The translations under genes were made by a program, and so were the position numbers. Below, piece by piece: positions 5,808-41,916 of a stretch of DNA of 51,209 nt (position 1 is the first letter of the stretch; each line of letters begins with the position of its first letter). The DNA is from Escherichia phage BubbaBully. Location of the stretch: the sequence record OR896831.1; one strand, written 5' to 3'. The notes below the pieces were generated by a model, which was given only the letters and a program-made list of their open reading frames with translations, was not told the DNA's origin and made no database searches.

Positions 5808-5835
5808 TTGCACGTTTAACAAAAAGTGCTATCAT
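5808..5835 (+). promoter_or_regulatory. sigma70-like promoter for major capsid gene (TTGCAC-16-TGcTATCAT)
   Basis: -35 TTGCAC 5808-5813, 16-bp spacer, extended -10 TG-n-TATCAT 5827-5835; the reversed box lies within the spacer and -10. Confidence 0.45.
5815..5832 (-). promoter_or_regulatory. conserved box, reversed orientation, overlapping capsid promoter
   Basis: TTTAACAAAAAGTGCTAT is the reverse complement of the box; followed by 8-bp hairpin 5839-5859 and strong RBS. Confidence 0.5.
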
Positions 5836-5876: not shown

Positions 5877-6839
5877 ATGACTAAAAAGTATGACGAATTT
5901 GACGCCAGCGTTGTAACCGCTCACCTGCAAATGCAGGGCGTTAAAAATGACGCTTCCGATATGGGTATCTGGACTGCGCAGGAGCTTCACAAGATCCGCT
6001 CCTCTGCATACGAAAAAGAATACCCTGTAGGCTCCGCGCTGCGAGTGTTCCCTGTCACCAACGAACTGAGCGACACTGACAAGACTTTCGAATACCAGAC
6101 TTTCGATAAAGTTGGCTACGCTAAAATCATCGCTGATTATACCGACGACCTGCCAACCGTTGACGCGCTGATGTCAACCGAGTTTGGTAAAGTGTTCCGC
6201 TTGGGTAACGCTTTCCTGATCTCCATTGACGAAATCAAAGCAGGTCAACGCACTGGTAAGAGCCTGAGCGCTCGCAAGGCAAACGCCGCGCAGAATGCTC
6301 ACGACCAGCTTGTAAACTTCCTGGTGTTCAAGGGTTCCAAGCCGCACAAAATTCTGAGCGTGTTTGAACACCCTAACCTGACCAAGATCGTAGCCGCTAA
6401 AAAATGGTACGACTCAAGCTCAAAAGCCAAAGAGCCAGAGCAAGCTTTCGACGATCTGACTGCGGCAATCGAAGCGCTGGAGACTCAGACCAACGGGCAG
6501 CACCGCGCTACCCACATTCTGATCCCGCCAAGCGTCCGTAAAGTTCTGATGGTTCGCATGGAAAATACCACTGAGAGCTACCTGGAATACTTCCAGAAGC
6601 AAAACGGCGGTATCACCATTGAAGCAATCGCAGAGCTTGAAGATATCGACGGTTCCGGCGGCAAGGGCGTACTGGTGTACGAAAAAGATCCAATGAATAT
6701 GTCCATTGAGATCCCCGAAGCATTCAATATGCTGCCAGCGCAGCCTAAAGACCTGCATTTCAAAGTGCCTTGCACCTCTAAATGCACTGGTCTGACAATC
6801 TATCGCCCATTAACTCTTGTGTTAATCACTGGCGTGTAA
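5877..6839 (+). CDS. major capsid protein
   Basis: 320 aa; own promoter, strong RBS AAGGAGAAAG, terminator downstream; position after scaffold and decoration genes. Confidence 0.65.
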   Translation: MTKKYDEFDASVVTAHLQMQGVKNDASDMGIWTAQELHKIRSSAYEKEYPVGSALRVFPVTNELSDTDKTFEYQTFDKVGYAKIIADYTDDLPTVDALMSTEFGKVFRLGNAFLISIDEIKAGQRTGKSLSARKANAAQNAHDQLVNFLVFKGSKPHKILSVFEHPNLTKIVAAKKWYDSSSKAKEPEQAFDDLTAAIEALETQTNGQHRATHILIPPSVRKVLMVRMENTTESYLEYFQKQNGGITIEAIAELEDIDGSGGKGVLVYEKDPMNMSIEIPEAFNMLPAQPKDLHFKVPCTSKCTGLTIYRPLTLVLITGV

Positions 6840-9528: not shown

Positions 9529-9547
9529 TTTTAACAAAAAGTGCTAT
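9529..9547 (-). promoter_or_regulatory. conserved box, reversed orientation, in tail-operon leader
   Basis: TTTTAACAAAAAGTGCTAT immediately upstream of the RBS of gene G. Confidence 0.5.
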
Positions 9548-14851: not shown

Positions 14852-15437
14852 AACAATCAAACTTTCCGGCTCCCTGGGGCGGCGCTTTGGTGTCTTTCAT
14901 CGTTTCGCCGTCGATAGCTTTCCAGAGGCAATTCGAGCGCTATCAAGCCAGGTTGAAGGATTCAAAGACTACATGCAAAGCGAAATCGGATCGCGCATGA
15001 AATACGCAATCTTTGTTGACGGCGTTAACGTTGGAGAGCATAACGATAAAGCATGGCAATGCAGCAAAGAGATCAGGATTTTGCCTATTCCAACAGGTTC
15101 AAAATCTGGCGGTTTGTTTCAGGTAGTTTTGGGCGCTGTTATTATGGCGACTGCGTTTTTCACTGGTGGTGCATCGCTGGCGGCTATGGGTGCGCTAGCA
15201 TCCTCCGCTTTCATGATGGGCGGCGCAATGGTGCTGGGTGGAGTAATGCAGATGATTTCACCGCAGCAAGGCGGCTCTATGATGGAAATGCAGAGCGCAG
15301 AAAACAAACCTTCTTATGCGTTCGGCGGAGCGGTAAACACAACGGCGGCTGGATATCCTATCCCGTTACCGTATGGAGAGAGAACCGTTGGCGGCGCTAT
15401 CTGGTCGGCAGGTAGTTACGCAGAGGACAAAGTTTAA
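14838..15437 (+). CDS. tail assembly protein (lambda I-like)
   Basis: 199 aa with hydrophobic Gly/Ala/Met-rich C-terminal region; synteny. Confidence 0.6.
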   Translation: METVKTIKLSGSLGRRFGVFHRFAVDSFPEAIRALSSQVEGFKDYMQSEIGSRMKYAIFVDGVNVGEHNDKAWQCSKEIRILPIPTGSKSGGLFQVVLGAVIMATAFFTGGASLAAMGALASSAFMMGGAMVLGGVMQMISPQQGGSMMEMQSAENKPSYAFGGAVNTTAAGYPIPLPYGERTVGGAIWSAGSYAEDKV

Positions 15438-25253: not shown

Positions 25254-27392
25254 TTACTGCAACGCTTTGATTAGCAATTTAAGATCTTCAATCTCTGCTT
25301 TCAGGTTGTCGATCTCCTCTTGTTGCTTGTTAACTATCTCCTTTTGCTCTTTGAATGCGTTAACCAAAAGTGCAACAACGCCGTTATAGTTAACACCTTT
25401 AATTGCCTCTCCTTTTGGATCTGGCTCTCCATCGTTATTCAAAGAATGAACCGCTTCCGGTAAAACTCTTTCAACATCTTGCGCTATCAGTCCAGCCTCA
25501 ATACTATAAACGCTGTTTTCATCTTCAATCAGATTGTTTCGTTTGTAGTAAGTGTAACCAGTTAGATAGTCAATTTTGTCGGATGCCGTTTCGATCTCTT
25601 TTAGATTTGCTTTCATCCTTATGTCAGATGTGCTAACCCATTGGTTACAAACTGCACCTCCAGCGTTATTGAAAATGAAGTCTGCACCCTTTACATAAAG
25701 GTGAGTTTCAGCGCCGCCAGCAGACCAGTTAACACAATCCAATCCGGTGATCCAATCGTGACCCCAATGAACAGCCTTAAAAATACTTATTGCAGCATCA
25801 TGTGACGGAATTTCGCACAAAACACCAGTCGCCCTATCACGCCAAGCTGAAAAACTACCAGCTTGCAACTTACCACCAATAAAAAATGAACCAGAACCAG
25901 TCCTAGTACCTTCAACATACGCAAAGCGAGTGTTTTCCGGCGCATATGATGTAATTGGCTTGTATGCCGCAAGTTGCTCTGGAGTCCACGCTATAATATT
26001 TTGACCGTCAGAAACAGCCTGGATAACTCCGTCACTACTCCACCTTAAACCGCTATCGCTATCGCCAATCGCAATCGCATTTGCACCAAGCACATGATCA
26101 GACATGCCTATAGCTAGAGATGAAAAGTTTGAAAGATATCCGCGCTCATCTATCTGCAAATAACTATTACCCCCTCCAGGCCTGAATGTATGAATTGTTG
26201 TTTTAGACAACCCACCTTTGATCTCGTTATAAATTCTAGAGTTTGAAACATCGTTTCCGTTTGCATGTCTATTTGTAAGGTAAATTAAACCAGAGTTAGC
26301 ACCATTCTTTTCAATAAGATGCACGCCCCTAAAAACAGGAATATCAGCCTCACCAATGCCAAAATTGTTTCTTGCTTGACTTATGTTTGTTGCACCAGTT
26401 CCGCCCTGTTGAACACCAAGAGGAATAAACTGTTGCGATGCGGTATTCCAGTAACCCCAACCATCGTTACCAACTGTAAGGTATTTGATCTTATCCGGCG
26501 AATGAATAAACGTTTCACCATCGCCCTGATTAAATCGGTCAACCTTCAACGCCTCCCTTGCAAGGTCTTTGTTTGCAAGATCATTAAGGTTTTGATCTTT
26601 ATGCAGAAGATTTTCAGGCTGTACCTGTTGCACCAATTGGCGAGCTTCATCACGCGCAGTTTCAGCACCAGACTTTGCGTTATTGGCATCAGCGGCATGA
26701 TTTCCAGCCGCATCACGCGCCAATTCAGCCTGATCGCGAGCGCCGAAAGCCTCTTGCTTAATGGCTTCCGTTTCGGTTACGGCTGAATCTTTAATCTGTT
26801 CTGTTTGCGCCTTTATTGCGTCAGTATCTGCCTTAATCTGGTTTGTTTCAGCGACAGCAGAATCCTTTATCTGTTCTGTTTGCGCCTTTATTGCGTCAGT
26901 ATCTGCCTTAATCTGGTTTGTTTCAGCGACAGCAGAATCCTTTATCTGTTGAGTGTCGTTTTTAAGTTGTTCAGTTGCAGCGAGATTGGCGGCTGTTTTT
27001 TCTGCATCACCTTTAACCTGGTTAACCAAATCCTGCAAAGCTTTCAGGTCAAAGTTTTTGAAAAATTCAATAGCTTCCTCGATCTGAGTCTCTTTGCTTT
27101 GATAGTAGCGCAGAGTTTCCGCAACATCTTGCGCGAGGCCATCAACCGTGATTGAGTCATGCAGCAAAATGATGTAATTGCTTCGCCCAATTTCAGCGCC
27201 GCCAGTTGTGATGGCGCGGATTTGTGTGTCACTGATAACTTCACTGATCACAGCCGCTTGAAAAGGAGCATCAATAAAAAAGATTGTTGCACCAGGGCGG
27301 ATTAGTGAAAGTTGCTCACGCCATTTTGTATCATATCCGGTGATGTATCCTTGAGCGTCCATAGACGCTTGACCCTTGCGGTAAATAGCCAT
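25254..27392 (-). CDS. tail fibre protein with C-terminal intramolecular chaperone (peptidase S74-like)
   Basis: 712 aa; C-terminal SDIRMK...YNGVVALLVNAFKEQ chaperone-type segment; internal 25-aa tandem repeats. Confidence 0.8.
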   Translation of the reverse strand: MAIYRKGQASMDAQGYITGYDTKWREQLSLIRPGATIFFIDAPFQAAVISEVISDTQIRAITTGGAEIGRSNYIILLHDSITVDGLAQDVAETLRYYQSKETQIEEAIEFFKNFDLKALQDLVNQVKGDAEKTAANLAATEQLKNDTQQIKDSAVAETNQIKADTDAIKAQTEQIKDSAVAETNQIKADTDAIKAQTEQIKDSAVTETEAIKQEAFGARDQAELARDAAGNHAADANNAKSGAETARDEARQLVQQVQPENLLHKDQNLNDLANKDLAREALKVDRFNQGDGETFIHSPDKIKYLTVGNDGWGYWNTASQQFIPLGVQQGGTGATNISQARNNFGIGEADIPVFRGVHLIEKNGANSGLIYLTNRHANGNDVSNSRIYNEIKGGLSKTTIHTFRPGGGNSYLQIDERGYLSNFSSLAIGMSDHVLGANAIAIGDSDSGLRWSSDGVIQAVSDGQNIIAWTPEQLAAYKPITSYAPENTRFAYVEGTRTGSGSFFIGGKLQAGSFSAWRDRATGVLCEIPSHDAAISIFKAVHWGHDWITGLDCVNWSAGGAETHLYVKGADFIFNNAGGAVCNQWVSTSDIRMKANLKEIETASDKIDYLTGYTYYKRNNLIEDENSVYSIEAGLIAQDVERVLPEAVHSLNNDGEPDPKGEAIKGVNYNGVVALLVNAFKEQKEIVNKQQEEIDNLKAEIEDLKLLIKALQ
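26782..26949. repeat. 75-bp tandem direct repeat (about 2.2 copies) inside tail fibre gene
   Basis: Near-identical 75-nt units in phase with the reading frame, encoding TEQIKDSAVAETNQIKADTDAIKAQ repeats. Confidence 0.8.
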
Positions 27393-28510: not shown

Positions 28511-28951
28511 TTAGCTATTCGTGCTGTTTATGAAGTCCGACTCTTTCACGACGCGCAGCATTTCGTATCGGTCGCATTTCGTCGTTAGCGCTTTTCCGTT
28601 GGAGTCAAATCTCAGGTCAGGACGGCAGAATGAAGCTCGATATCCCTTGCAGCCGTTTCGCTTATAGTCGGCGTGAACCTTTTCGGCTCCAGAAACTGAA
28701 ATCATCCCGCGCTTGCGCCACTGCTGAATAACTTGGTGAGTAACCTTTAAACGCCTTGTCATTTCCGCCTGAGATCCGTAATATTCGCAAACGGCATCTA
28801 GACGAGCACGCAATCCGGCTTTGACTTCATCCTTTAGAACGTAGTAGCCTGTTTTGCGCTTGCGTTTTTTCTTGTCTTTACCGCGCTTTACCCCGTTGTT
28901 GCCATTGATTGTGCGCTTGTCAATTTCGCCAGTTGATGCAGCAATTTTCAT
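28511..28951 (-). CDS. putative HTH DNA-binding protein with basic N-terminus and Cys cluster
   Basis: Start at internal ATG 28951 (GGAGG RBS); track ORF N-terminus overlaps the box of the divergent promoter; HTH-like segment MTRRLKVTHQVIQQWRKRGMIS. Confidence 0.45.
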   Translation of the reverse strand: MKIAASTGEIDKRTINGNNGVKRGKDKKKRKRKTGYYVLKDEVKAGLRARLDAVCEYYGSQAEMTRRLKVTHQVIQQWRKRGMISVSGAEKVHADYKRNGCKGYRASFCRPDLRFDSNGKALTTKCDRYEMLRVVKESDFINSTNS

Positions 28952-28964
28952 ATTAAAACCTCCG

Positions 28965-29008
28965 ATAGCACTTTTTGCTAAAAACATTCAAAACGTAGGC
29001 GCTATTAT
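28965..29008 (+). promoter_or_regulatory. box promoter (box + 22-bp spacer + TATTAT) for helicase gene
   Basis: ATAGCACTTTTTGCTAAAA 28965-28983; -10 TATTAT 29003-29008; 32 nt upstream of the helicase start. Confidence 0.55.
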
Positions 29009-33420: not shown

Positions 33421-33464
33421 ATAGCACTTTTTGTTAAAAATGCCCGGCGAAAGTCGGGCATAAT
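33421..33464 (+). promoter_or_regulatory. box promoter (box + hairpin + CATAAT)
   Basis: Box begins directly after TAA stop; stem GCCCGGC/GTCGGGC; -10 at 33459-33464. Confidence 0.55.
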
Positions 33465-33706: not shown

Positions 33707-33944
33707 GCAAGGCCGCGAGGCCGTTTGGAATCACGCCAAAGAAACAGGAATGGCAGACGATATAGCACGAATTGCTAAAATATTTGATCTGGCTGATGTT
33801 AGTATTATCAGCAACGGGAAAATGACTTACTTACACGAGAGGCCGCGCAAAATGCACCGTGTGCCAGCAATCCCGACAAAAATCGACTTCAAAGAAGCAA
33901 TGGCAAAAATCAGAGAGCCGAAAAAGTATTACAAAGGAGAATAG
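33696..33944 (+). CDS. hypothetical protein (contains an in-frame copy of the box)
   Basis: 82-aa ORF; codons for IARIAK are the box sequence. Confidence 0.5.
   Translation: MKVEQGREAVWNHAKETGMADDIARIAKIFDLADVSIISNGKMTYLHERPRKMHRVPAIPTKIDFKEAMAKIREPKKYYKGE
33762..33805 (+). promoter_or_regulatory. intragenic box promoter (box + 22 bp + TG-n-TAGTAT)
   Basis: Exact box inside CDS 33696-33944 with extended -10 at 33797-33805. Confidence 0.45.
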
Positions 33945-33949
33945 TTATC

Positions 33950-34021
33950 ATGTGGCGCTTGCTTGTTCTTCCAATGCCCGTTATCATTGCCGCCGTTGTT
34001 ATGTACGCACTTGTTATGTAA
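33950..34021 (+). CDS. very small hydrophobic peptide (23 aa), not in ORF track
   Basis: ATG after AAAGGAGAA RBS; single hydrophobic stretch. Confidence 0.25.
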   Translation: MWRLLVLPMPVIIAAVVMYALVM

Positions 34022-34038
34022 TTTAAGAGGAAAAGTTA

Positions 34039-35157
34039 ATGATTCAGAAAATGACAGACCAGCAGTTTAAAGAAGCACGAGCAGAGGGCAAAACCTACAA
34101 GCAGATCGCGGAGGAGTTCGGCTTGAATGTTCGCACCGTTGAGCGCCGCGCGGCACGACTTGCCCGCCAAGGTGAAACTAACACGAAAGGCGCACCAGGT
34201 TTTGCGGTTGTTCGTGAGTCAGTCCTGACCCGCGCAAACGGCGAAGAAGTGATGCGCTGGACTATCACCAACAAAGATAAAGAGCAGTTGGAAGCGCTCA
34301 TGCAAGCCGCGATGGAGGCATTCGCTGAGGAAGTGCCACGCCTTGAGCCTCAGCCGGAAAGCCACAAAGACTACAGCGAAAGCCTTGCGCTATATCCGAT
34401 CTTTGATATGCACATTGGTGCAATGGCTCATAAGCACGAGTGCGGCGAGAATTGGGACACGGCAACCGCCGAGAAGGTCATGAATGACTTCTTTGATTAT
34501 GCTGTAGAGTGTGCGCCAAACAGCGAAAAGGCTGTGCTCCTGATTGGTGGCGATATGCTTCACAGTGACGGCCTTGAGGCTGTAACACCTGCTAGCGGTC
34601 ACGTTCTTGATCAGGATAGCCGCTATGCCAAACTGGTTTATGTCGCAATCCGAGCTACTCGTCGCGCTATCTCCTTGATGTTGACCAAACACAAAGAGAT
34701 TGAGGTTCAGGTTATCGAGGGCAATCATGACCAGTCAGGGATGATCTGGCTACGCGCAGCAATGGCGGCGGCATACGAGAACGAGCCACGCGTGACGGTT
34801 GATGTTTCTCCTCGCGTAGTGCATCACACGCAGTACGGAAAAACCTTCCTTGCTTATCACCACGGGCACACTGTGCGCAAGCCGGAGGCGTTGTTGATGA
34901 TGTGCGCGTCGGATTGGCGAGAGGACTTCGGGATCTCAAAATCAATGTATGCTCACGTTGGACATTGGCATCACCAGACCGTAACAGAAACCAGCCTGGG
35001 GATTGTTGAAGTTCACAGCACAATGGCGGCTAAAGATGCATATGCAGCTCGCGGAGGTTGGCGCTCTCGTCGTCGCGCGGCGGTTATCATCTACGACAAA
35101 GAGCACGGCGAGATCGGGCGCTTCATGTTCTACCCTGAAATGATGGAGTCAAAATAA
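34039..35157 (+). CDS. metallophosphoesterase (calcineurin-like) with N-terminal HTH-like region
   Basis: 372 aa; motifs DMH, GGDMLHSD, GNHD, HHGH; N-terminal KTYKQIAEEFGLNVRTVERR resembles an HTH. Confidence 0.65.
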   Translation: MIQKMTDQQFKEARAEGKTYKQIAEEFGLNVRTVERRAARLARQGETNTKGAPGFAVVRESVLTRANGEEVMRWTITNKDKEQLEALMQAAMEAFAEEVPRLEPQPESHKDYSESLALYPIFDMHIGAMAHKHECGENWDTATAEKVMNDFFDYAVECAPNSEKAVLLIGGDMLHSDGLEAVTPASGHVLDQDSRYAKLVYVAIRATRRAISLMLTKHKEIEVQVIEGNHDQSGMIWLRAAMAAAYENEPRVTVDVSPRVVHHTQYGKTFLAYHHGHTVRKPEALLMMCASDWREDFGISKSMYAHVGHWHHQTVTETSLGIVEVHSTMAAKDAYAARGGWRSRRRAAVIIYDKEHGEIGRFMFYPEMMESK

Positions 35158-35327
35158 TGAAAGTGAAATGCGTTGAGAATTCATCTAAAACACTGCCTTA
35201 CTACGAGGGCTTTGTGTACGAGGCTGAGCCATTGCCTGGCGGGATGTACAAGATTAAAGATGAATCAGGGCAGCATATCATTGCGCCGCTAAAAGGACAT
35301 TATCTGGAGTTTTTACAGATTGATTAA
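35157..35327 (+). CDS. small hypothetical protein (56 aa), not in ORF track
   Basis: ATG overlaps upstream stop (TAATG); open frame to TAA at 35325-35327; terminator follows. Confidence 0.4.
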   Translation: MKVKCVENSSKTLPYYEGFVYEAEPLPGGMYKIKDESGQHIIAPLKGHYLEFLQID

Positions 35328-35351
35328 CATTTAATTTCATAAGCTTACAAA

Positions 35352-35378
35352 GGGTTAGCATTTGCTAACCCTTTTTTT
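35352..35378 (+). terminator. intrinsic terminator upstream of lysis cassette
   Basis: GGGTTAGC/GCTAACCC stem followed by T7. Confidence 0.6.
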
Positions 35379-35454
35379 ATTGTTTTGTTTTTGCTCATTG
35401 ATGGTTAACATAAACTCGCTTAACTATTGACATTTGACACAAGGAGATCGGATT

Positions 35455-38693: not shown

Positions 38694-38737
38694 ATTATAG
38701 GTCAACCATCTTACAGCCTTTTAGCAATTCGTGCTAT
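38694..38737 (-). promoter_or_regulatory. box promoter (box + 22 bp + TATAAT in hairpin loop)
   Basis: Box 38719-38737 overlaps TAG stop of upstream gene; TATAAT 38694-38699 in loop of GGTTGACC/GGTCAACC. Confidence 0.55.
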
Positions 38738-39553: not shown

Positions 39554-39597
39554 ATAATAGCGGATCTTATCGACCCGCTTTTAACAAAAAGTGCTAT
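39554..39597 (-). promoter_or_regulatory. box promoter (box + hairpin + TATTAT)
   Basis: Box 39579-39597 (- strand), stem AGCGG/CCGCT, -10 at 39554-39559. Confidence 0.55.
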
Positions 39598-40946: not shown

Positions 40947-40990
40947 ACTATACCAGGCCGCAGCGCCGGAGTTTTAACAAAAAGTGCTAT
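40947..40990 (-). promoter_or_regulatory. box promoter (box + 22 bp + TG-n-TATAGT in hairpin loop)
   Basis: Box 40972-40990; TATAGT at 40947-40952 within GGCGCT/AGCGCC hairpin. Confidence 0.55.
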
Positions 40991-41872: not shown

Positions 41873-41916
41873 ATTATGCCGAAATCAGATCAGTCTGTTT
41901 TAGCAAAAAGTGCTAT
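41873..41916 (-). promoter_or_regulatory. box promoter (box + 22 bp + CATAAT) driving the leftward accessory block
   Basis: Box 41898-41916; -10 at 41873-41878; CA-rich leader. Confidence 0.55.

Follow-up and report, generated by a model that had tools for sequence, protein, structure and literature searches.

Escherichia phage BubbaBully (sequence record OR896831.1; its whole stretch of 51,209 nucleotides is referred to here as the window) carries a plus-strand gene at positions 34039–35157, in whose product an N-terminal helix-turn-helix (HTH) is joined to a calcineurin-like metallophosphoesterase (MPE) core. The list of open reading frames (ORFs) gives the strand and a length of 372 aa, and its coordinates agree exactly with those of the first-pass annotation, an earlier reading of the same DNA made from the sequence alone. 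In the most likely reading, which is held with moderate confidence, the protein acts in the lytic cycle as a DNA phosphodiesterase that is Mre11/SbcD-like, independent of Rad50 and tethered through its HTH. A DNA-directed nuclease was the best-supported function because the motifs and the fold of the core are Mre11/SbcD-like, because a DNA-binding head is nearly universal in the family, and because the gene contexts are those of DNA metabolism. The architecture, the fold, the gene contexts and the conservation of catalytic residues are described below, and from them we infer a DNA substrate, a metal, a nuclease activity and a biological role; together they make a well-supported functional prediction, and no more than that, for a gene whose BubbaBully copy is an ordinary ortholog.

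Domain architecture and catalytic centre

The PHROGs profile phrog_704 was matched over the full length of the protein (E = 5e-148, residues 3–369 against profile positions 2–389/390) and also by each half separately (N-terminal half, E = 2.7e-18; MPE half, E = 6.2e-123). On residues 13–40, the Pfam model Sigma70_r4_2 scored 27.9 bits (E = 1.8e-6), above its gathering score of 25.7 bits, and several other HTH models matched as well. In the AlphaFold2 (AF2) model, with an overall predicted local distance difference test score (pLDDT) of 73.6, this region forms a three-helix bundle (helices 7–15, 20–27 and 31–43; pLDDT 74–86). The first-pass annotation had described an HTH-like extension of about 60 residues and had made its proposal depend on a DNA-binding fold at the N-terminus; such a fold is predicted by both Pfam and AF2, and the string quoted there corresponds to residues 18–45. 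The length has to be revised, since about 112 residues precede the core, comprising the HTH (residues ~5–45) and a conserved hairpin/helix module (57–98). This linker was modelled as a β-hairpin and a helix at low confidence (pLDDT 52–58); its residues G68 and W74 are nearly invariant in an alignment with 139 relatives, and the N-terminal consensus of the family ends in '...vP.Gf.vKG'.

The α/β sandwich of the AF2 model starts at residue 113 and has the four layers of the calcineurin-like superfamily. It also ends the protein (strands to residue 364 of 372, ~7 residues after the last core strand), so that all additional domains are N-terminal. The top structure match in the Protein Data Bank (PDB) by Foldseek was the MjMre11–DNA complex (E = 1.4e-7). 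The Pfam model Metallophos (PF00149) remained below threshold (15.0 bits against a cut-off of 21.5 bits; E = 0.035), as it did for several relatives; the phrog_704 family is too divergent for this model, and because of this shortfall the MPE assignment rests on motifs, fold and PHROG rather than on Pfam.

The motifs follow each other in the order D123-M-H125, G171-D172-M-L-H175, G228-N229-H230-D231, H275-G276-H277 and G308-H309-W-H311, which bears out the earlier statement that DxH, GDxxH, GNHD and GH occur in this sequence. They are invariant across 20 close relatives. Among 139 cluster representatives at 30–57% identity, the residues D123, H125, D172, N229, H230, H275 and H311 never vary, and at least 90% of the sequences keep H175 and H309. 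Two further loops of the core, VTPxSGHxLDxDxR (182–195) and DAYAxRGGW (333–341), are specific to phrog_704.

In fold and motifs the protein comes closest to the Mre11/SbcD nucleases, which include T4 gp47. The spellings GDxxH, GNHD and GHxH are characteristic of Mre11/SbcD, and all three are found in the BubbaBully core.

Size, spread and labels of the family

An exhaustive search returned 4556 cluster representatives (50% identity clusters) of phrog_704 type at E ≤ 0.001, 999 of them at E ≤ 1e-30. By tblastn, the protein was found in 2062 of 50,697 phage records, with carriers in Drexlerviridae, Jerseyvirus/Kagunavirus, Dhillonvirus, Jedunavirus, Casjensviridae, Xiamenvirus, Vibrio phages and others. 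Among the enzyme families of tailed phages that are uncharacterised, this is one of the larger.

Nearly all members have 46–160 residues before the linker, and the N-terminal consensus reads 'Te.q.e.leA....Gs.r.AA..LGv...tv.r.l.r...rAA..G..Pe......vP.Gf.vKG'. Compared with PDB sequences, the family profile matched best to GerE (1fse, E = 0.0096), RhlR, DesR and region 4 of sigma-H, and the HTH models matched by individual members vary (GerE, HTH_8, HTH_1, HTH_28, HTH_30, MarR_2). An HTH was present in nearly every lineage sampled, the version of a Campylobacter myophage (317 aa) being the sole one without an HTH match. Longer relatives were inspected for novel extra domains; this idea was rejected, as the additional segments are just second or different HTH domains. 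The core is the most conserved region, with a mean pairwise identity of 39% against 23% for the HTH. Since the HTH is nearly universal but diverges faster than the core, the architecture is best described as a catalytic core that stays constant and carries a DNA-binding head that varies.

The labels given by depositors conflict: "DNA repair exonuclease", "DNA polymerase II small subunit", "proof-reading exonuclease" and "transcriptional regulator" are all in use.

Within this family, the BubbaBully gene is an ordinary ortholog of T1 gp16 (ST16) and a persistent gene of Drexlerviridae, from a family already widely annotated. The window is the genome of a T1-like siphophage of the Drexlerviridae, near Henuseptimavirus, and the 4 kb around the gene are 91–94% identical at the nucleotide level to Enterobacter phage N5822, Escherichia phages Henu7 and IsaakIselin (Bas10) and Klebsiella phage Samwise, where the gene is labelled phosphoesterase, DNA repair exonuclease or hypothetical protein. 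T1 gp16, originally annotated as similar to a Novosphingobium hypothetical protein and falling under the phrog_704 label 'DNA repair exonuclease', has the same architecture (377 aa against 372 aa in BubbaBully) and the same position, after the helicase–Dam block and before the SH3–holin–endolysin–spanin genes; nothing essential differs.

Relation to characterised metallophosphoesterases

An experimental precedent in a phage is gp48 of mycobacteriophage A10ZJ24, an MPE for which phosphodiesterase and DNase activities and the destruction of host genomic DNA have been demonstrated (PMC12287305). Like the BubbaBully gene, the MPE genes of cluster A mycobacteriophages (A10ZJ24 gp48, Bxb1 gp47, L5 gp54; phrog_221) lie in a replication gene block, and motifs III–V of the proteins align in order. 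The cluster A protein differs in its length of 255 aa, in the lack of an N-terminal HTH and in the position of motif I at D10. Orthology with Bxb1 gp47 and A10ZJ24 gp48 was rejected: the families are separate (phrog_221 and phrog_704), hhalign gave a probability of 10%, and gp47 has no HTH. The PHROGs profile search likewise did not place the BubbaBully protein in phrog_221. As judged from the profile comparison, A10ZJ24 gp48 is related to the T1 gp16-type MPE at superfamily level only.

Another known enzyme with shared features is the Pseudomonas putida nuclease MPE/PdeM, a ligase-associated endonuclease of the DNA-damage response (PDB 6nvo), which is a stand-alone MPE nuclease and needs no Rad50. 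Weak matches around motif III were obtained to NCBIfam TIGR04123 (E = 0.0023) and to PDB 6nvo (E ~1). PdeM is associated with a ligase, and the MPE homolog of the Campylobacter phage also adjoins a DNA ligase gene.

Gene contexts and alternative functions

The neighbourhood survey comprised 80 loci from bacterial genomes, located with an 11-sequence subset of the 139-sequence alignment; neighbours of the 52 long loci were clustered, and Pfam and PHROGs served to annotate one representative per cluster. Individual prophage loci are referred to by their survey numbers (L006 to L073). Two layouts recurred. In layout A, replication genes and NinB/NinG are followed by the MPE gene, then by Q and/or lysis genes, TerS, TerL and portal, which is the slot of lambda NinI. 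In layout B, tail genes, endolysin and one or two small genes precede the MPE gene, and convergent genes follow, so that the MPE gene is the last of a late operon.

Layout A raises the question of a protein phosphatase equivalent to lambda NinI, which occupies the same slot in lambdoid prophages, after NinG and before Q. The support is an analogy of position: lambda has the order ninG–ninH (a small HTH protein)–ninI (an MPE phosphatase)–Q, NinG immediately precedes the MPE gene in L022, L044 and L068, and Q immediately follows it in L010. The signatures of PPP phosphatases are GDxVDRG and GNHE; the protein has GDxxH and GNHD instead (GGDMLHSDG, GNHD), hhalign of the family profile with NinI gave a probability of 0.7%, and there is no homology to NinI beyond superfamily level. 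Equivalence to NinI is accordingly considered very improbable. Descent from a NinH–NinI fusion was rejected on the same NinI value and on the hhalign match to NinH, which amounts to generic HTH similarity (27 columns, probability 50%).

Two further roles suggested by prophage order were dismissed. A substitute for the small terminase was considered, as the MPE gene lies between lysis genes and TerL in many prophages; L068 has a TerS of its own (phrog_1206). A Q-type late regulator was considered for the genes that follow NinG; in L010 a Phage_antitermQ gene overlaps the MPE stop codon, and L019 has a borderline match.

More generally, the protein could be a bifunctional regulator whose HTH binds phage operators, for autoregulation or for an early-to-late switch, while the MPE domain hydrolyses or senses a small ligand that modulates binding, much as BirA and NadR do. 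The HTH is indeed of a regulator type (Sigma70_r4_2, GerE, HTH_8), it diverges faster than the enzyme core, as would be expected from co-evolution with phage-specific sites, the gene often stands at operon ends, next to lysis or late genes, and some depositors chose the label of a transcriptional regulator. We nevertheless regard this role as unlikely. The strictly conserved catalytic centre points to catalysis as the main function, and where checked, the phages have separate late regulators or TerS (the Q-type antiterminator genes and the TerS named above). The last place in a late operon, as in layout B, is a poor one for a late activator. Finally, the promoter box repeated through Drexlerviridae genomes (see below) does not occur in those E. 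coli prophages whose HTH-MPE protein is 64% identical, and it precedes early genes, including the operon of the MPE gene itself; binding of this box by the HTH was rejected on these grounds.

In other lineages the gene is found in diverse surroundings. It belongs to the helicase–Dam operon in T1-like phages, forms an opposite-strand islet within the tail module in Jerseyvirus, and directly follows the lysis genes in Casjensviridae and Dhillonvirus. In Campylobacter phage F370 it stands after DNA ligase and near a Holliday-junction resolvase; in Jedunavirus it overlaps the start of a polynucleotide kinase (PNK) gene, which is followed by a deoxynucleoside monophosphate (dNMP) kinase; in Xiamenvirus it is convergent with ribonucleotide reductase, and ribonucleotide reductase or ThyX adjoins it in two phages. 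No constant partner gene was found among the contexts examined. A conserved small downstream partner was also rejected: the DUF7244/SH3 gene follows in Drexlerviridae only, and the downstream genes of other lineages are mutually unrelated.

The Jedunavirus arrangement speaks for a phosphoesterase of small substrates, which would degrade signalling nucleotides (cyclic mono-, di- or oligonucleotides) against host defence or would heal 2',3'-cyclic and 3'-phosphate ends together with a phage PNK. A PNK is also encoded in the BubbaBully window, and bacterial Pnkp uses an MPE-type healing domain. In T1-like phages, however, the PNK gene is ~10 kb away and in a different operon, and such an enzyme leaves no role for the near-universal DNA-binding head. 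No PADLOC-DB family matched at E ≤ 1, so a relationship to defence systems was rejected, and neither defence nor anti-defence neighbours were seen at the loci examined. The anti-CBASS and anti-Pycsar enzymes known so far use folds other than MPE. A small-substrate role is thus given a low probability. Of the suggestions in the first-pass annotation, a DNA-targeted phosphatase or nuclease, the nuclease survives as the best-supported function, on the motifs, fold, HTH and contexts; the degradation of signalling nucleotides, which it had also listed, was not supported.

In E. coli prophages, the order is cro, Lin1244_N, Ant (antirepressor), MPE and DnaB. In L006–L008 (lambdoid prophages of E. coli next to ogt/fnr), the gene for the 64%-identical HTH-MPE protein lies 19 bp upstream of the DnaB-family helicase gene, within the replication module, where lambda has the O and P genes. 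This adjacency would suit a helicase loader or a non-catalytic adaptor of the replisome, for which the B-subunits of replicative polymerases, with their MPE fold, offer a parallel. Eukaryotic polymerase B-subunits have lost the MPE active-site residues, whereas these are invariant in the present family; moreover, the adjacency to DnaB is seen in one lineage only, and the AF2 model has no OB-fold domain. An adaptor or loader is therefore the least probable of the functions considered.

As a separate observation, a protein of the HslV peptidase family (~140 aa, phrog_1040, N-terminal 'TTIAY.DGV.A.D') is encoded close to the MPE gene, only a few genes before or after it, at 12 of the 52 loci, including L014, L015, L041, L048, L068 and L073; Pfam gives no match for it.

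Proposed mode of action

As a DNA phosphodiesterase, the protein would be held on double-stranded DNA by its LuxR/sigma-r4-type HTH, and the hairpin/helix linker together with three strongly conserved basic or acidic loops would surround the active site. A binuclear metal centre (probably Mn2+) would be formed by D123, H125, D172, N229, H275, H309 and H311 and would cut DNA phosphodiester bonds, with H230 and H175 as catalytic helpers. Expression would start from the box-type promoters common to the early/middle helicase–Dam operon, which the gene ends, and the enzyme would act on DNA during the lytic cycle without a Rad50/SbcC partner.

Two roles may be envisaged. In the first, the enzyme would nick and degrade the host chromosome and so feed dNMP-kinase salvage, possibly with the RecE-like exonuclease; in the second, it would trim ends and secondary structures for recombination-dependent replication. 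The window encodes a dNMP kinase, a PNK, a RecE-like exonuclease and an Erf-like annealase, and among its genes no other nuclease for attacking host DNA is evident besides the RecE-like exonuclease. A route of nucleotide salvage is thus present, and few candidates are left for the nuclease step upstream of it. According to the re-annotation of phage TLS, T1 and TLS degrade the host genome and reuse its nucleotides, through a gene product that its authors describe as not yet identified; the homolog of the present protein is listed there just as 'proof-reading exonuclease (gp66)' (PMC11447400). Our literature search, too, returned nothing specific on the T1 gene responsible for host-DNA degradation. 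Host-DNA breakdown is plausible for the virulent T1-like phages, where the protein is a candidate for the enzyme in question. Because many carriers are temperate, a role in recombination-dependent replication, in which the enzyme would process ends or branched structures, is an alternative of wider scope.

Several points weigh against a DNA nuclease of this kind. In contrast to Mre11/SbcD, which have a C-terminal capping/DNA-binding domain, the BubbaBully protein lacks such a domain and has the N-terminal HTH and hairpin/helix instead. The sequence similarity of the family profile to Mre11/SbcD is marginal (E ~1.3), as it is to any solved nuclease (E ~1). Mre11, SbcD and T4 gp47 pair with Rad50, SbcC and gp46, respectively, and for the MPE family no such partner gene was seen, neither among the annotated neighbours in T1, IsaakIselin, Jerseyvirus, Casjensviridae, Dhillonvirus, Jedunavirus and the Campylobacter phage nor among the recurrent neighbour clusters of the 52 prophage loci. 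The loops 131–138, 177–194 and 333–342, which are highly conserved, were modelled with pLDDT below 50. The HTH is far more variable than the core, which would be easier to explain by a specific DNA site or by contact with a protein than by plain non-specific tethering. Destruction of the host chromosome is not known from temperate prophages, to which many carriers belong, so host degradation cannot be a universal role of the family. In the literature, no experimental study of the phrog_704/T1 gp16-type family and no biochemical or genetic data on it were found.

A bolder version may be formulated for the T1-like phages, which we put forward tentatively and consider rather less probable than the general nuclease function. 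Here the T1 gp16-type HTH-MPE would be the nuclease that starts host-chromosome breakdown and feeds dNMP-kinase salvage, possibly the classical 'host degradation / high transduction' locus, and would establish a new class of Rad50-independent, HTH-guided Mre11-like nucleases, present in ~4% of sequenced phages. If the protein is a host-chromosome nuclease, it would close the gap in T1 biology stated by the authors of the TLS study, bear on T1-mediated generalised transduction, and offer a simple one-polypeptide, DNA-tethered Mre11-like nuclease for study.

Transcription unit in the window

The features of the region are collected in Table 1. Box promoters upstream, the TAATG overlap with the next gene, the terminator-like hairpin and a promoter-like site at 35427, which precedes the holin gene, place the MPE gene at the end of the helicase–Dam operon and outside the lysis cassette.

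Table 1 Features of the HTH-MPE gene and its surroundings in the BubbaBully window
Feature	Position	Strand	Description and basis
Upstream repeated-box promoter	33421..33464	+	Box ATAGCACTTTTTGTTAAAA, 19-nt spacer, -10 CATAAT; same family as the promoter of the helicase gene
Nearest upstream repeated-box promoter	33762..33808	+	Box ATAGCACGAATTGCTAAAA, -10 TATTAT at 33803-33808; ~230 nt before the start codon
Ribosome-binding site AAGAGG	34025..34030	+	8 nt upstream of ATG; read from the sequence
HTH-MPE coding sequence	34039..35157	+	372 aa; ORF list; phrog_704 over full length; T1 gp16 (ST16) ortholog
N-terminal HTH, sigma70 region 4 / LuxR-GerE type	34051..34173	+	Residues ~5-45; Pfam, AF2 model, family profile
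Linker module	34174..34374	+	Residues 46-112; β-hairpin 57-77, helix 80-98; AF2, conservation
Calcineurin-like MPE core	34375..35154	+	Residues 113-372; motifs I to V/VI
56-aa DUF7244 (SH3-clan) gene	35157..35327	+	Pfam DUF7244, E=3.1e-28; phrog_4788; ATG overlaps MPE stop (TAATG)
Intrinsic-terminator-like hairpin	35349..35374	+	11-bp stem and T run; closes the unit ahead of the lysis cassette

Downstream of the MPE gene, the window has the Drexlerviridae order of DUF7244/SH3, holin, endolysin and spanin. In a 2026 paper on phage KanT1, exonuclease–SH3–holin–endolysin–spanin was treated as a stable unit, retained by 39 of 42 Tunavirus genomes, and the DUF7244/SH3 protein was proposed as an auxiliary lysis protein from this co-localisation (PMC13164509). 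In BubbaBully, the DUF7244/SH3 gene is linked transcriptionally and translationally to the MPE gene, whose stop codon it overlaps, and is separated from the holin gene by the strong terminator and the promoter-like site; in T1, by contrast, a terminator and an HNH gene stand between the MPE and SH3 genes.

Between the preceding gene and the MPE gene, an unannotated ORF of 23 codons (MWRLLVLPMPVIIAAVVMYALVM, 33950–34021, plus strand) has a strong AAGGAG ribosome-binding site. Its product would be a very small hydrophobic peptide, unless the ORF arose by chance. Elsewhere in the window, the minus-strand gene of the lateral tail fibre (25254–27392, 712 aa) contains three tandem repeats of 75 nt at 26752–26976, which are 61–80% identical to the reference copy and correspond to repeats of 25 residues in the protein.

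Repeated promoter box

The box ATAGCAC(GAA/TTT)TTG(C/T)TAAA(A/G/C) occurs in 18 copies in the window. Twelve lie on the plus strand (at 1569, 28965, 31457, 31976, 33421, 33762, 43261, 43955, 45356, 46147, 47430 and 48608) and six on the minus strand (5814–5832, 9529–9547, 38719–38737, 39579–39597, 40972–40990 and 41898–41916). Allowing up to 3 mismatches, 26 matches were counted, where chance would give 2.1. In 14 of the 18 copies, a good -10 hexamer, one that agrees with TATAAT in at least 5 of 6 positions, stands exactly 19 nt downstream, and on account of this constant spacing the boxes are taken as phage promoters, mostly ahead of early genes. The box is the 21-nt repeat of phage TLS, whose function was left open by the authors (PMC11447400).

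The other regulator of BubbaBully, encoded at 28511–28987 (minus strand) and considered along with binding of the box by the HTH of the MPE protein, is only a weak match to Cro/YdaS-type HTH domains.

The core of the box, GCACTTTTTGTTAAA, was compared with the marbox of E. coli MarA/SoxS/Rob, GCAHWWWWTGYYAAA (PMC6900184), and up to 15 of 15 positions match. The marbox-like core is in forward orientation and overlaps the -35 region, as published for the class II geometry. No paper linking early promoters of T1-like phages to Rob, MarA or SoxS was found in the literature; the sequence match suggests that host Rob, MarA or SoxS may drive early transcription in these phages.

The structural module is on the plus strand, and two of the minus-strand boxes (5814–5832 and 9529–9547) fall between its genes, a short way upstream of those that begin at 5877 and 9563. 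Neither box has more than a poor -10 element of its own, and T1 contains two equivalents, at 15069 and 18833. These reverse boxes could serve as antisense promoters or, for late genes, as activator sites in reverse orientation.

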